Below are positions 5,131 to 15,952 of a DNA stretch of 64,000 nt, piece by piece. Made by a program: the position numbers and the translations under genes. The notes under the pieces are model-generated. The model did no database searches. It was not told the origin of the DNA and saw only the letters and a program-made list of their open reading frames with translations. Source of the stretch: Escherichia coli (lineage in GTDB: Bacteria > Pseudomonadota > Gammaproteobacteria > Enterobacterales > Enterobacteriaceae); the NCBI RefSeq assembly GCF_003334785.1, contig NZ_QOWV01000003.1. The stretch is one strand, 5' to 3'. Position 1 is the stretch's first letter; every line of letters starts with the position of its first letter.

Positions 5131-5889
5131 TCACGCCACCCCAATCTCCATCCCATCAAACCCCACCTCAAACCCTGACGGTAGTGCGTTTTCCATCAGC
5201 CACGCATCAAACTGGTGGCTGATATGGGTCAGAATCACCCGTGGCGAGCGGATAACCTGATTCAGCGCAAGCACGGTATTTAAATCACAGTGATTACGCG
5301 GTGCATCCGCGCGCGGCGGGTGACTGCAATCCATCACCATTACCTGCGGCTGATTATTGCGTAAAAATTTCAGCGTTTTTTCCGGCAAGCCTGCGGTGTC
5401 AGACAGCCACGCCACCCGGCTGTGTGCCGTTTCCAGCAGATAACCGAAGGTCAGTTTTGAGTGGTTGAGCGGCAGGGGCGTGACCTGTAACCCCTGCAAA
5501 TCAAACACCACAAACGGTTCCACCGTGTGGCTGAAATCAAGCAGGCCCGGATGTTTAAACAGATCGTCGCAGCCCTGTTCATCCGGCGGGCCGTAAACCG
5601 GGATCGGATCGCCAACGCCCCAGCGCAGCGGAAACAGCCCCTGGACGTGATCCATATGATAATGCGTCAGCAAAAACTGCTGGAACGATCCGGGCGACCA
5701 GCGATCGGCGAGATCGTGCAGCCCGGCGTCGATCAGGGTGATTGCGTCGTTAAACTTCACTACGCCGCTGCACGGTTGGCGGCGATACTGCGGCGAGCGC
5801 CGCGCTCTGGCGCAGGCCGCACACTCGCAGCCCCATGCCGGAACGCCCTGTGCGCCGCCGGTGCCGGTGAGCGTGAGGGTCAGGCTCAT
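5131..5889 (-). CDS. phnP: Phosphoribosyl 1,2-cyclic phosphate phosphodiesterase (metallo-beta-lactamase fold)
   Basis: 252-aa ORF with HxHxDH motif ([12 protein letters not shown]); recognised as PhnP. Confidence 0.93.
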
Positions 5890-5890
5890 G

Positions 5891-6325
5891 TTACAGCGCC
5901 TTGGTGAAGCGGAAGTGGCTCTGCTCGTAGCCTTCGCGCAGATAGAAACGGTGCGCGTCGTGGCGCTTCACGTTGGTCGAAAGTTCGGTCATTTCGGCCC
6001 CGGCCTGGCGGGCTTCTTCTTCTGCCCACGCCAGTAACTTACTGCCGACGTTCAGACCGCGCGCCTGCGGCATTACCACCAACTCCTGAATTTCGCCGAT
6101 CCAGTTGACATGATGCAGATGAAACTGCAAATGCAGGCCGATCATGCCGACAACTTCGCCATCAAGCAGCGCCAGATGGTAGCGCATGTTTGGGTCGCGC
6201 AGATTGGCGTTAAAACCCACGCGAAACGCGTGGTGGTCAAACTCCGCCTGTTTTAGCTCACAAATCAGCGCGTAAACCGCGTCGGTGTCGTACTGCGTGG
6301 CCGGGCGAAGCTCACAAGCAGGCAT
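5891..6325 (-). CDS. phnO: Aminoalkylphosphonate N-acetyltransferase (GNAT)
   Basis: 144-aa GNAT-like ORF; recognised as PhnO. Confidence 0.93.
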
Positions 6326-6869
6326 GGTGTTTCTCCTTCTGATGGATCAGCGTCAGCAGCGTGTCGACCGACTGGCGCAGGCTGCCGTCATTGTTGAGCG
6401 TATGGCAATCCTGTGGAGTATAGCGGGCGGCGCGCGCCAGGCGGGCGTTAATTTCACTGGCGTTTTCACGGCCACGGTTTTCCAGGCGCTGGCGGAGGAT
6501 CTCCGGCGAAACCTGTAAACAGACGGGCAGCAGCGCCGATTGATAGCGCGCCCGCGCCTGCGGCAGATGGGCGCGTGAGCCGTTGACCAGCACGTCGAAT
6601 CCGGCGTGCAGCCAGAGATCAATCTCGACGCCGACGCCATAATACAGACCGTTAGCGTGCCAGCTTAAGGCCAACAGATTTTGCCCCGCGCGGGTAAAAA
6701 ACTCCTGCTCGCTCAGGGCGATATGGTTTTCACTTCCGGCGCTGGCATCGCGCGTGATGTAGCGATGCGCCACCAGTAACTGAGTTTGTTCCCGCAGGCG
6801 GAGTTCCGCCAGCAGGCTGTCTTTCCCGGAGCCGGACGGCCCCATTAACCAAATCAGTTTTCCCATCAT
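6312..6869 (-). CDS. phnN: Ribose 1,5-bisphosphate phosphokinase
   Basis: 185-aa ORF with P-loop GPSGSGKDS; recognised as PhnN; overlaps phnO start. Confidence 0.93.
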
Positions 6870-8005
6870 CAGAACACCCTTTTACCCTGACGCCAGACGT
6901 GGTCGATATGAATATGATTGTCCTTGCGATGCGCCAGCACCAGGTCGGCGCGTTTGCCCTCGCCAATCACCCCGCGATCCTGGAGATTAAGCGCCTGCGC
7001 TGGATTTTTAGTCACCAGCTTCACCGCCTGCGGCAGCGTAAAGCGGTTGCTCTGGTCATCGGCGACGCGAAATGCCGCATCGAGCAGGCTGGCGGGGTAG
7101 TAGTCGGAAGAGAGGATATCCAGCAGGCCAAGCTGCGCCAGTTCACTGGCCGCCACGTTGCCGGAGTGCGAGCCGCCGCGCACAATATTCGGCGCGCCCA
7201 TCAGCACGTTCATGCCATGCTTGCGCGAGGCTTCCGCCGCTTCGAACGTGGTGGGAAATTCGGCGATCACGCTGCCAAGCTGGTGAGATTCAGCAACGTG
7301 GGCGTGGGTGGCGTCATCGTGGCTGGCAAGCGCAATTTTTCGCGCGCGGCACAGGGCGGCGATGGATTCGCGATTCGGCTGCGACCAGCGTGCGGCGAGC
7401 GCCAGTTGCTCTTCTTCGTACTGCTGCATCTGCGCATCAGTGAGGGAGTATTTGCCCTGATAATATTCGCGATACTTCTTGCGGTTGGCGAACTGGCGCT
7501 GGCCCGGCGAGTGGTCCATCAGCGACACCAGCGTCACCGGCTCGCGCTGCACCAGTTTTTCAAACAGCGGCAGCGTGGTGTGATGCGGCAGTTCGCAGCG
7601 CAGATGCAGACGGTGCTCGGCGCGGTTGACGCCGCGTTTCTGCGTCTCTTCGATGGCGTTGATCATCTTCTCCAGATTCTCCAGCCGATCGCCGCCGTCG
7701 CGCACGTCGCCAATTGCCACGGCATCCAGTACGGTGGTGATGCCGCTCGCCACCATCAGCGCGTCGTGGCTGCTCATCGCCGAGTGGGCAGGCCAGTCAA
7801 CTTTCGGGCGCGGGGTGAAGAATTTATCCAGATTATCGGTATGCAGCTCAATCAGCCCCGGCAGCAGCCAGCCGCCTTCGCCGTCCATCGCCTCCGGCAG
7901 GCGGCTCTGGCTTTCGGCAAAGGCGCGGATTTCGCCGTTCTGCACCTCCAGCGAACCGCTTACCACCTCGTTTTCCAGCACCAGCTTAACGTTATTGATA
8001 ATCAT
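6869..8005 (-). CDS. phnM: RPnTP diphosphatase (amidohydrolase superfamily)
   Basis: 378-aa ORF; recognised as PhnM; stop/start overlap with phnN. Confidence 0.93.
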
Positions 8006-14017: not shown

Positions 14018-14021
14018 GTTT

Positions 14022-14122
14022 GGCTCCGGTCTGTAGGCCGGATAAGGTGCTTGCACCGCATCCGGCATCAACGCCTGCACATTGTCGGATGCGACGCCGG
14101 GGCGTCTTATCCGACCTACGAT
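14022..14122. repeat. REP pair (BIME) between phnD and phnE
   Basis: ctgtaggccggataaggtgcttgcaccgcatccggcatcaac ... gtcggatgcgacgccggggcgtcttatccgacctacg. Confidence 0.85.
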
Positions 14123-15139
14123 TTACTGCACCGCTTTACTCACCGAACTCATCGCGCTTAGCGCGTTGTTCAGGCGGTCCAGGTCATCCAGCTGCGCCTG
14201 AATCTCGGTGGTTTTTGCCAGCTTGTCCTGCTCATTCAGTCCTTTATTGCTTTTCACGCCCTGCATCTCTTTAAACAGCGCGAGCTGGCGAATCGGCACC
14301 AGTTGCAGGTCGCTGGAAGCGCGGAATGGCGCCCAGCCCAGGCGTTCCAGCACCGCTTTTTCTTCCGGCGTTTTGCCGTAGTTCATAAAGAAGTCGTAGA
14401 TCTTGTCTTTGGTGGTTTCGGAAAGATTCTTGCGCCAGACGATCGGATCGCCTGGGATCAGCGGCGACTTCCAGATCACCTTCAGTTCTTTCAGCTTCTC
14501 TGGCGCGGAGGTTTTCAGCTTGTCGAGGTTTTCGGTGTTGTTGGTGGCAACATCCACCTGCTTGTTGGCGACGGCCAGCGCGTTGGTTTCATGCCCGGCG
14601 TTGACGGTGCGCTTGAAGTCGCTGGCGGAGATATTGTTTTTGGCGAAGACGTAGTAGCCGGGGACGAGGAAGCCAGAGGTGGAGTTAGGATCGCCATTGC
14701 CAAAGGTGAGATCTTTCCGCTTCGCCAGCAGATCGTTCAGGTTGTTGATCGGACTGTCTTTGTTGACGATCAACACGCTCCAGTAACCCGGCGATCCATC
14801 CGCCGCGACCGTCTGGGCGAAGACCTGGCCATTGGCGCGATCCACCGCTTCCATCGCCGACAGATTGCCGTACCAGGCGATATCCACTTTATTGAAGCGC
14901 ATCCCCTGGATAATGCCCGCGTAGTCCGGGGCAAAGAAGGCGTTGACCTTCACGCCCAGCTTCTTCTCCATATCCTGCAAGAACGGCGTCCATTGCGGTT
15001 TCAGGTTTTGCTGTGATTCCGTTGAAATAATGCCGAAATTCAACGCCTTTTCCTGCTCTTCGGCGTGCGCCGGGCTTAACAGGGTGCTGAGGCTGAACAT
15101 GCTGGTGAAGGCCAGCGAGGCAATTATCTTAGCGTTCAT
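14123..15139 (-). CDS. phnD: Phosphonate ABC transporter periplasmic binding protein
   Basis: 338-aa ORF with signal peptide; recognised as PhnD. Confidence 0.93.
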   Translation of the reverse strand: MNAKIIASLAFTSMFSLSTLLSPAHAEEQEKALNFGIISTESQQNLKPQWTPFLQDMEKKLGVKVNAFFAPDYAGIIQGMRFNKVDIAWYGNLSAMEAVDRANGQVFAQTVAADGSPGYWSVLIVNKDSPINNLNDLLAKRKDLTFGNGDPNSTSGFLVPGYYVFAKNNISASDFKRTVNAGHETNALAVANKQVDVATNNTENLDKLKTSAPEKLKELKVIWKSPLIPGDPIVWRKNLSETTKDKIYDFFMNYGKTPEEKAVLERLGWAPFRASSDLQLVPIRQLALFKEMQGVKSNKGLNEQDKLAKTTEIQAQLDDLDRLNNALSAMSSVSKAVQ

Positions 15140-15163
15140 TCGTTTTCCTCAATGATGGGGATG

Positions 15164-15952
15164 TCAGGCAGCTTTCGCGTTCTCTTCGACGCGGTTAATG
15201 CTGCGGTAGAGATGGTCAAAACGTTCGTTATCAAACTGTTGGCTGCTGCCGTCGTAGAAGACGTGCCCCTGGCGCAGGGCGACGATGCGTTCGCAGTAGC
15301 GCAGGGCGTAATCCACCTGATGCAGCGTGACGACCACGGTGATGCCGTCGTTCTGGTTGATGTCGCGCAGGGTGTCCATCACGATGCGCGCTGATTCTGG
15401 GTCCAGCGAGGCGATGGGTTCATCGGCCAGAATCACTTTCGCCTGCTGCATCAGCGCACGGGCAATCGCCACACGTTGCTGCTGGCCGCCGGAGAGGGTG
15501 GAAACGCGCTGATGGGCAAAATGCACCATGCCAACGCGGGTCAGCGCCTGTAACGCGCGCTGTTTCTGCTCGCCGGTGAACCAGCTAAAACAGGTGCGCC
15601 AGAACGGCGTGCTGCCGAGCGCGCCAATCAGCACGTTCTCCAGTACGCTCAGGCGGTTCACCAGGTTGAATTGTTGGAATATGTAGCCGGTATGGGCGCG
15701 GCTTTTGCGGATATCGCGGGCCAGGCGGCCTTCGCGCTGGACTGTGCGGCCCAGCAGCTCGATATGGCTACCGACAGATTTATCGCCGGTAATCAAACCG
15801 CTTAAGTGACGTAAAAGGGTGGATTTTCCGGAACCCGACGGCCCAAGCAGAGCCACCATTTCACCGTGATGAATGTTCAGATCAACCGCATGCAGCGCCT
15901 GATGCTGATTGAAGGTTTTGGCGAGCTTCTCGACACGGATAATCGTTTGCAT
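15164..15952 (-). CDS. phnC: Phosphonate ABC transporter ATP-binding protein
   Basis: 262-aa ORF, Walker [10 protein letters not shown]; recognised as PhnC. Confidence 0.93.

Follow-up and report, generated by a model that had tools for sequence, protein, structure and literature searches.

Overlapping gene junctions and two intercistronic REP pairs in the phn operon of Escherichia coli

We analyzed the phn operon carried by a 64,000-nucleotide (nt) stretch of Escherichia coli DNA (contig NZ_QOWV01000003.1 of assembly GCF_003334785.1), referred to here as the window. An earlier reading of the sequence alone, the original prediction, had pointed to short overlaps between adjacent phn genes and to pairs of repetitive extragenic palindromic (REP) elements that interrupt the operon. 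Positions 5131-15952 of the minus strand correspond to E. coli phnCDEFGHIJKLMNOP, a 14-cistron Pho-regulated operon (PMC9947105, PMC3463581), and all 14 genes lie on that strand. As determined by megablast, several E. coli chromosomes match all 10,822 bases at 100%, and at least 80% of the region is present in 5386 of the 5426 complete E. coli genomes. Gene coordinates were obtained by transferring the RefSeq annotation of one identical strain to the window (window position = locus position + 3630), with the following result.

15164-15952, minus strand: phnC
14123-15139, minus strand: phnD, encoding the periplasmic binding protein
13230-14017, minus strand: phnE, permease gene, annotated as frameshifted
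12484-13209, minus strand: phnF
12031-12483, minus strand: phnG
11450-12034, minus strand: phnH
10386-11450, minus strand: phnI
9548-10393, minus strand: phnJ
8793-9551, minus strand: phnK
8002-8682, minus strand: phnL
6869-8005, minus strand: phnM
6312-6869, minus strand: phnN
5891-6325, minus strand: phnO
5131-5889, minus strand: phnP

Each junction was then read from the coding-strand sequence at the RefSeq starts. Junctions are named by the letters of the two genes, and negative distances denote overlaps.

C/D: +24 nt
14018-14122, minus strand: D/E spacer, +105 nt, with a REP pair
E/F: +20 nt
12481-12486, minus strand: F/G, gap of 0, TGAATG, absent from the list of the original prediction
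12031-12034, minus strand: G/H, -4, ATGA
11448-11452, minus strand: H/I, -1, TGATG
10386-10393, minus strand: I/J, -8
9548-9551, minus strand: J/K, -4, ATGA
8683-8792, minus strand: K/L spacer, +110 nt, with a REP pair
8002-8005, minus strand: L/M, -4, ATGA
6867-6871, minus strand: M/N, -1, TGATG, reading TTCTGATGATGG; +2 if PhnN starts at the second ATG
6312-6325, minus strand: N/O, -14
5887-5893, minus strand: O/P, +1, TAACATG, near-contiguous and likewise absent from that list

All seven predicted overlaps (G/H, H/I, I/J, J/K, L/M, M/N, and N/O, ranging from 1 to 14 bp) were present at the RefSeq starts. The "atga" that had been given for phnN/phnM was incorrect, as this junction is a 1-nt TGATG; the true ATGA overlaps are G/H, J/K, and L/M. 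Eight of the 13 junctions (F/G, G/H, H/I, I/J, J/K, L/M, M/N, and O/P) fall within -8 to +6 nt, a range that holds 707 of 2987 unidirectional E. coli gene pairs (24%) (PMC10666635); the phn count exceeds this proportion (binomial P = 0.004). Taken by itself, the finding matters very little. This is an ordinary E. coli phn operon, the overlaps are already in the standard annotation, the REP element at D/E is already a named feature (EcoCyc REP324), and both phenomena are textbook knowledge.

Corrected start codons had been named as the observation that would remove the overlaps. The overlaps survived our checks of the starts, and phnN alone was ambiguous. Neither phnO nor phnK has an in-frame alternative start that would abolish its overlap, the PhnI ATG has a counterpart at the homologous position in all 75 species compared, and the residues of PhnH, PhnJ, and PhnM that precede the next possible start are conserved across Proteobacteria (in PhnJ, a conserved GYNFAYLDEQ begins at residue 6). 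Chain lengths in the solved C-P lyase structures (PDB) agree with the annotation for PhnJ (281 amino acids) and PhnL (226 amino acids). Upstream alternative starts for phnI, phnJ, and phnK gave only longer overlaps and found no support in the N termini of homologues. A Shine-Dalgarno (SD)-like motif precedes the annotated ATG by 4 to 11 nt in all 14 cistrons. For phnH, phnI, phnJ, phnK, phnM, phnN, and phnO this motif lies inside the upstream open reading frame (ORF), with SD:anti-SD energies of -4.7 to -10.6 kcal/mol and a spacing of 4 to 9 nt.

Two starts were considered separately. At phnN (6864-6871), E. coli has two consecutive ATGs. Other Enterobacterales begin PhnN at the position of E. 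coli Met2 (MGKLIWL / MARLIYL), that is, at the second ATG, and the E. coli M/N junction therefore looks like a 3-nt TGA/ATG duplication. For phnL, a longer ORF was considered that extends across the REP pair as far as a TTG at 8796, overlapping the phnK stop. It was rejected because the extension is interrupted by stop codons in relatives and in the variant spacer of E. coli, and because the 9-nt spacers of some relatives cannot encode it. The last ~18 nt of the K/L spacer (CGAACCACGAGGCGAAAA) contain the SD of phnL.

The same junctions were compared in 80 loci collected by a PhnJ scan and covering Enterobacterales, Vibrionales, Pseudomonas, and other gamma-, alpha-, and betaproteobacteria. 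These loci were annotated by homology with a start caller that had no preference for overlaps. Overlaps were frequent at G/H (70%, n = 74), H/I (82%, n = 74), I/J (81%, n = 74), J/K (82%, n = 77), L/M (82%, n = 71), and M/N (61%, n = 69). N/O overlapped in 91% (10 of the 11 species having phnO), and N/P overlapped in 76% (n = 50). Conversely, overlaps were found in 2% at C/D (n = 45), in 0% at both D/E (n = 43, all spacers longer than 40 nt) and E/F (n = 41), and in 11% at K/L (n = 75, median gap of 16 nt). As an independent check, we inspected the PGAP annotations of three plasmids from three phyla. The H/I, I/J, and J/K distances were -1, -1, and -1 in Mesobacillus, where phnM follows phnK at +36; -13, -17, and -11 in Thermus, with K/L at +11; and -1, -4, and -4 in Paracoccus, with K/L at +3. 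On the Thermus thermophilus plasmid (pHB5008b), L/M overlaps by 35 nt.

Since the same junctions overlap across species while C/D, D/E, E/F, and K/L stay apart, the operon is, on this comparative evidence, best described as a pair of ancient, tightly packed blocks, (F)GHIJK and LMN(O)P, that meet at a conserved K/L break and follow three transporter genes (phnC, phnD, and phnE), each with a spacer of its own. It offers a clean natural case of overlaps conserved position by position across great evolutionary distances.

The original prediction had taken the overlaps as an indication that the subunits of the C-P lyase complex are translationally coupled. Coupling within phn is a reasonable proposal, strengthened by the conserved overlaps, by the SDs embedded in upstream ORFs, and by E. 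coli pairs tested by others; its restriction to complex subunits does not hold. PhnG, PhnH, PhnI, and PhnJ form the core complex, to which PhnK and PhnL bind (PMC9947105), and coupling from phnG to phnK would thus fit stoichiometric assembly. Only G/H, H/I, I/J, and J/K, however, join subunits of the PhnGHIJK(L) complex. L/M, M/N, and N/O connect separate enzymes for which no complex is known, so stoichiometry would not be the whole reason for the overlaps. We found no experiment on phn translational coupling, or on the function of the phn REPs, in the literature.

Among overlapping E. coli pairs tested previously, four of five were strictly coupled. Coupling was reduced by 40 to 80% at +14 nt and was lost almost totally at +38 nt, and subunits of heteromeric complexes were enriched 4.5-fold among short-distance pairs (PMC6728339, PMC10666635). 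Coupling may proceed through reinitiation by the same ribosome or through unfolding of the downstream ribosome-binding site, two routes that do not exclude each other, and it is lowered by structure just 3' of the stop codon (PMC12548453). F/G, with its gap of 0, is inside the distance range where reinitiation works. Compared with the coupled pairs of Huber et al. 2019 (PMC6728339) and 2023 (PMC10666635), the phn junctions are alike in their ATGA, TGATG, and -8 overlaps, in having the SD embedded upstream, and in joining co-directional genes of one operon, and the enrichment in complex subunits is shared in part (phnG, phnH, phnI, phnJ, and phnK). They differ in that the 14-nt overlap of N/O lies outside the -8 to +6 window analyzed there and in that three of the phn overlaps join separate enzymes.

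We propose that, inside the blocks, where the stop overlaps or touches the next start (-14 to +1 nt) and the SD is embedded in the upstream ORF, a ribosome ending one cistron would most likely reinitiate on the next or open its ribosome-binding site. Coupling of this kind would tie the outputs of the block genes together. The D/E and K/L spacers would then be the only uncoupled junctions downstream of phnD. Since reinitiation cannot bridge 105 to 110 nt, and structure after the stop lowers coupling further, PhnE and PhnL would have to initiate on their own SDs.

The overlaps could also have arisen neutrally, through genome compaction and drift of stop codons, with each cistron initiated from its own SD whether or not the gene before it is translated. 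Every downstream gene is preceded by a normally spaced SD-like motif, which makes independent initiation possible and weighs against coupling, as does the fact that three of the overlaps join enzymes outside the complex. In addition, de novo initiation was seen for one of the five E. coli pairs tested, bioF (PMC6728339), and -4 and -1 are the commonest spacings everywhere (PMC10666635). The starts in the other species, moreover, are homology-guided calls. Nevertheless, overlaps recur at the same junctions in Proteobacteria, Bacillota, and Deinococcota, and C/D, D/E, E/F, and K/L are apart, a pattern that indicates position-specific conservation rather than random compaction; the strict coupling of the other four tested pairs likewise speaks against this explanation. 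We consider it unlikely.

The REP pairs that had been predicted at phnL/phnK and phnE/phnD are both real, and each lies wholly inside its spacer. The four units are as follows.

8753-8786, minus strand: Z2-type REP of K/L, identical to the Z2 units of the REP325 array; its extended stem begins directly after the phnK stop
8703-8739, minus strand: Y-type REP of K/L, head-to-head with the Z2-type REP, 13 nt between them
14083-14119, minus strand: Y-type REP of D/E, with 3 mismatches relative to the Y-type REP of K/L
14033-14066, minus strand: Z-type REP of D/E, diverged

All four units are imperfect palindromes of ~35 nt with a conserved GTAG/CTAC end, and the order of the units at D/E is opposite to that of the head-to-head K/L pair. 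The Z-type pattern matched seven times in the window, with 0 matches expected by chance; the other REP pattern matches likewise had a chance expectation of zero, and inverted repeats were detected at both K/L and D/E. The RNA of the K/L spacer folds at -60.7 kcal/mol (z = -6.0) and that of the D/E spacer at -51.5 kcal/mol (z = -4.1), and structure sets in 0 to 6 nt past the stop codon of phnK and 3 nt past that of phnD. When the spacers were scored with the Rfam naRNA4 model (RF02564, the REP325 family; gathering threshold of 59.5 bits), D/E reached 69.1 bits on the plus strand, which is antisense, and 50.5 bits in the sense direction; the two K/L scores (42.7 and 36.4 bits) were below the threshold. 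These scores mean kinship with the REP family, not production of an naRNA. A weak match to the BTH_s1 RNA family (21 bits against a gathering score of 74) was dismissed. The K/L junction query found a median of 27 matching places per E. coli genome, while the diverged D/E pair matched its own locus only by megablast. No internal sense-strand promoter was found at either spacer, the single promoter-like match being on the plus strand. Further Z-type REP copies are present at 35463-35496 and 63850-63883, both on the minus strand.

The original prediction had also suggested a comparison with operons that lack these REPs, and this comparison separates the two sites: D/E is always structured, and K/L only sporadically. 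A D/E hairpin of -12 kcal/mol or lower was found in 43 of 43 species of Proteobacteria (median of -24 kcal/mol), starting at a median of 6 nt after the phnD stop. Compared with shuffled sequences, these hairpins had a median z of -2.6, with 27 of the 43 below -2, whereas the C/D control showed a hairpin in 4% and a median z of about 0. A T-run follows the D/E hairpin in 5 of the 43 other species. The occupants of the D/E position are unrelated in sequence: they comprise species-unique hairpins, Pseudomonas REPs, single enteric REPs (Citrobacter), and CCCTCTCCC/GGGAGAGGG palindromes, the last being found in Leclercia, Kluyvera, and Pantoea. At six loci with 0.9 to 1.1 kb from phnD to phnE (L021, L023, L024, L028, L049, and L058), the first 110 nt after phnD were scored. 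These ~1-kb gaps probably hold a second permease gene (phnE1/phnE2) that was missed by a truncated PhnE query. In Mesobacillus there are two adjacent permease genes. The E/F spacer (median gap of 35 nt) carried a hairpin of -12 kcal/mol or lower in 16 of 41 species, and none was seen in the 20-nt E/F spacer of E. coli.

At K/L, a hairpin was present in 11 of 75 species (15%), each time as a lineage-specific REP-like insertion, and was absent from several close relatives. In most species K/L measures 0 to 30 nt without a hairpin. Long K/L spacers with lineage-specific REPs were found in Enterobacter, Pluralibacter, Kluyvera, Cedecea, Citrobacter werkmanii, and several Pseudomonas. In Leclercia and Citrobacter FP75 the spacer is reduced to 9 nt (GAGGCGAAC or GAGGCCAAC, with GAGGCGAAC in Leclercia), which is essentially the SD, and Cedecea neteri and Hafnia have 9-nt spacers of other sequence.

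On this evidence, the hairpin after the binding-protein gene looks like a selected, conserved functional site, a function supported by its occurrence throughout the 43 Proteobacteria sampled. For the K/L REP pair, a tolerated insertion is the likelier reading, as hairpins there are confined to 11 of 75 species and are missing from close relatives. The comparison thus separates a probably functional hairpin site after phnD from a site that probably just tolerates insertions.

Both sites also vary within E. coli. In junction-centred searches of E. coli genomes, we found the K/L REP pair in 4842 genomes and a second palindromic family, in a spacer of 176 nt, in 546 genomes (~10%). At D/E, the REP pair was present in 3877 genomes (~72%) and the second family in 1506 (~28%), with either one hairpin (61 nt) or two (125 nt). 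The second family consists of G/C-rich palindromes, CCCCTCTCCC...GGGAGAGGGTTAGGGTGAGGGG, exemplified at K/L by E. coli NDM1 (L002, positions 162-337), and is absent from the 64,000-nt window. It resembles BoxC, a tentative assignment. BoxC is described as a 56-bp E. coli family, without a consensus, in PMC2267715. What the alleles have in common is confined to the final ~18 nt ahead of each downstream ATG. As the two alleles sum to essentially every operon-bearing genome, neither site is ever left empty in E. coli. Over 114 nt, the two-hairpin D/E allele shares 87% identity with the D/E spacer of Kluyvera, and it shares 78% with that of Leclercia, a likeness suggesting that it is probably the older allele and that the K-12-type REP pair is a replacement. 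In E. coli PSS-10, a 16-nt deletion removes part of the stem of the Y-type REP at D/E and leaves the Z-type REP intact, a natural partial knockout. Natural E. coli strains differ at exactly D/E and K/L and provide a ready-made allelic series for the function of intercistronic REPs.

The original prediction had further proposed that the REP pairs act as internal mRNA stabilizers or attenuators. REPs as a class are documented both to stabilize the mRNA upstream and to attenuate transcription (Higgins 1988 and Espeli 2001, as cited in PMC2267715). The proposal is plausible at D/E and weaker at K/L. The K-12-type REP pair fills the conserved hairpin position a few nucleotides after the phnD stop. 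There it would most likely shield the phnCD message from 3' exonucleases, partly terminate transcription, or both, thereby raising phnCD relative to phnE and the later genes. As at malE-malF and REP325, on which this analogy is built, the cell would thus produce more of the upstream product, here the periplasmic binding protein, than of the permease. The K/L REP pair would be a lineage-specific insertion into an ancestrally short, insertion-tolerant gap; it would guarantee uncoupling and may trim the GHIJK:LMNOP ratio, and the pathway would not need it.

A REP between the genes for a periplasmic binding protein (phnD) and a permease (phnE) is the classic layout of ABC transporter operons in which the upstream message is stabilized, as in malE-malF and hisJ-hisQ. 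The work of Higgins and Newbury on such intercistronic REPs is cited in PMC2267715. The phn order of ATPase, binding protein, and permease differs, in that the ATPase message would be stabilized too. A similar system within the window is the REP325/naRNA4 array that separates yjdM from yjdN and lies 0.6 kb upstream of phnC. It shares with the phn pairs the Y and Z2 types, the position between tandem genes on one transcript, and the lack of a U-tract. REP325 stabilizes upstream yjdM and attenuates downstream yjdN; its deletion lowers the yjdM/yjdN ratio from ~35 to ~1, and its Rho dependence is partial and seen with the full array only, not with 2 to 4 hairpins (preprint 10.64898/2026.03.23.713779). 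REP325 is, however, a many-unit array, while the phn sites have two REPs each. Attenuation by BIMEs (Espeli et al. 2001, cited in PMC2267715) resembles the phn case in that paired inverted REPs lie within a transcription unit, and differs in that the Rho-binding site reported near REP324 is NusG dependent and on the antisense strand. The fragment in question is listed in a preprint table as antisense to the phnD 3' end, ~72 nt from REP324 (near 14190-14280 by offset), and is classed there as REP324 proximal.

Taken as a whole, the account of two old, packed, and coupled blocks, a functional hairpin after phnD, and a K/L REP pair that is a tolerated insertion is the one we favor, with moderate confidence. 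Several observations weigh against its REP component. No intrinsic terminator was found at D/E or K/L, and no U-tract follows either REP pair. On the Thermus thermophilus plasmid pHB5008b, phnD and phnE overlap by 32 nt without a hairpin, so that a hairpin after phnD is not universal outside Proteobacteria. The occupation of K/L in all E. coli (4842 plus 546 genomes) sits awkwardly with a purely neutral insertion there. In uninduced transcriptome sequencing data (preprint tables), phnL (118) exceeded phnK (32), the opposite of attenuation, although these counts are very low, with the operon off; the mean normalized counts of phnE (36), phnK, phnL, and phnM (43), ranging from 10 to 118, are uninformative for junction ratios.

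Both REP pairs might instead be selfish or neutral insertions into the only available noncoding gaps, with no meaningful effect on phn expression. This would agree with the short, hairpin-free K/L of most species and the lineage-specific REPs of the long K/L spacers, with the variation of the occupant between E. coli strains, and with the 16-nt deletion inside a REP in one strain. Furthermore, REP effects are described as variable and context-dependent in the literature. On the other hand, the hairpin after phnD is found in all 43 species, including as unique, nonrepeated sequences, and is far stabler than shuffles or the C/D control, and virtually every E. coli genome has an occupant at each of the two sites. 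We regard this explanation as rather doubtful for the two sites together, albeit the strongest of the competing ones.

The short distance between stop codon and structure (0 to 6 nt at phnK, 3 nt at phnD) raises a further possibility, namely, that a REP close to the stop stalls the terminating ribosome and, by way of trans-translation and cleavage of the mRNA, lowers PhnD and PhnK, which would be the reverse of stabilization. Liang, Rudd, and Deutscher reportedly described in Mol Cell in 2015 that a REP within ~15 nt of a stop stalls the terminating ribosome, which we treat as a lead only. A periplasmic binding protein is normally wanted in excess, however, which fits poorly with down-regulation of PhnD, and published genome-wide results place the expression of genes upstream of REPs above that of random upstream genes. 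Such stalling seems quite improbable to us.

Finally, the REPs could act on the DNA level, through binding of gyrase, IHF, or HU or through nucleoid organization, and not on the phn transcript. Interactions of PU-BIME elements with gyrase and IHF have been reported (PMC2267715), and the D/E pair matches the naRNA4 model. Against this, nucleoid volume is reported to be unchanged by REP325 deletion, and REP-REP contacts were reportedly not seen in Hi-C. In addition, non-REP hairpins occupy the same D/E position in other species, which points to a role at the RNA level. We consider an action on the DNA level very improbable.

The turnover of occupants at D/E also suggests, tentatively, a broader possibility that we would not rate as probable. 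The position after phnD may be a conserved regulatory site whose occupant has been replaced repeatedly (unique hairpins, Pseudomonas or enteric REPs, the CCCTCTCCC/GGGAGAGGG family and, in E. coli, an ancestral occupant giving way to the REP pair in ~72% of genomes), with mobile palindromes being recruited into a functional position that was already there and not creating it. The K/L break, in turn, may be a conserved boundary between two coupled modules that tunes the core complex against the accessory enzymes.

Two further observations concern repeats in and next to the operon. The REP325/naRNA4 array occupies 16592-16971 and is made up of a 100-bp Y+Z2 unit repeated 3.8 times; the Rfam naRNA4 model matched it four times, at 95 to 111 bits. 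Published descriptions of the K-12 reference give six repeats (12 REP units), and the copy number may differ between the two. Within phnE, an 8-bp unit that reads CGCCAGCA on the plus strand is repeated 2.9 times at 13590-13612. The K-12-type cryptic phn allele is an 8-bp duplication in phnE that reverts by loss of one copy (PMC3463581), and the phnE of the window is this K-12-type cryptic allele.

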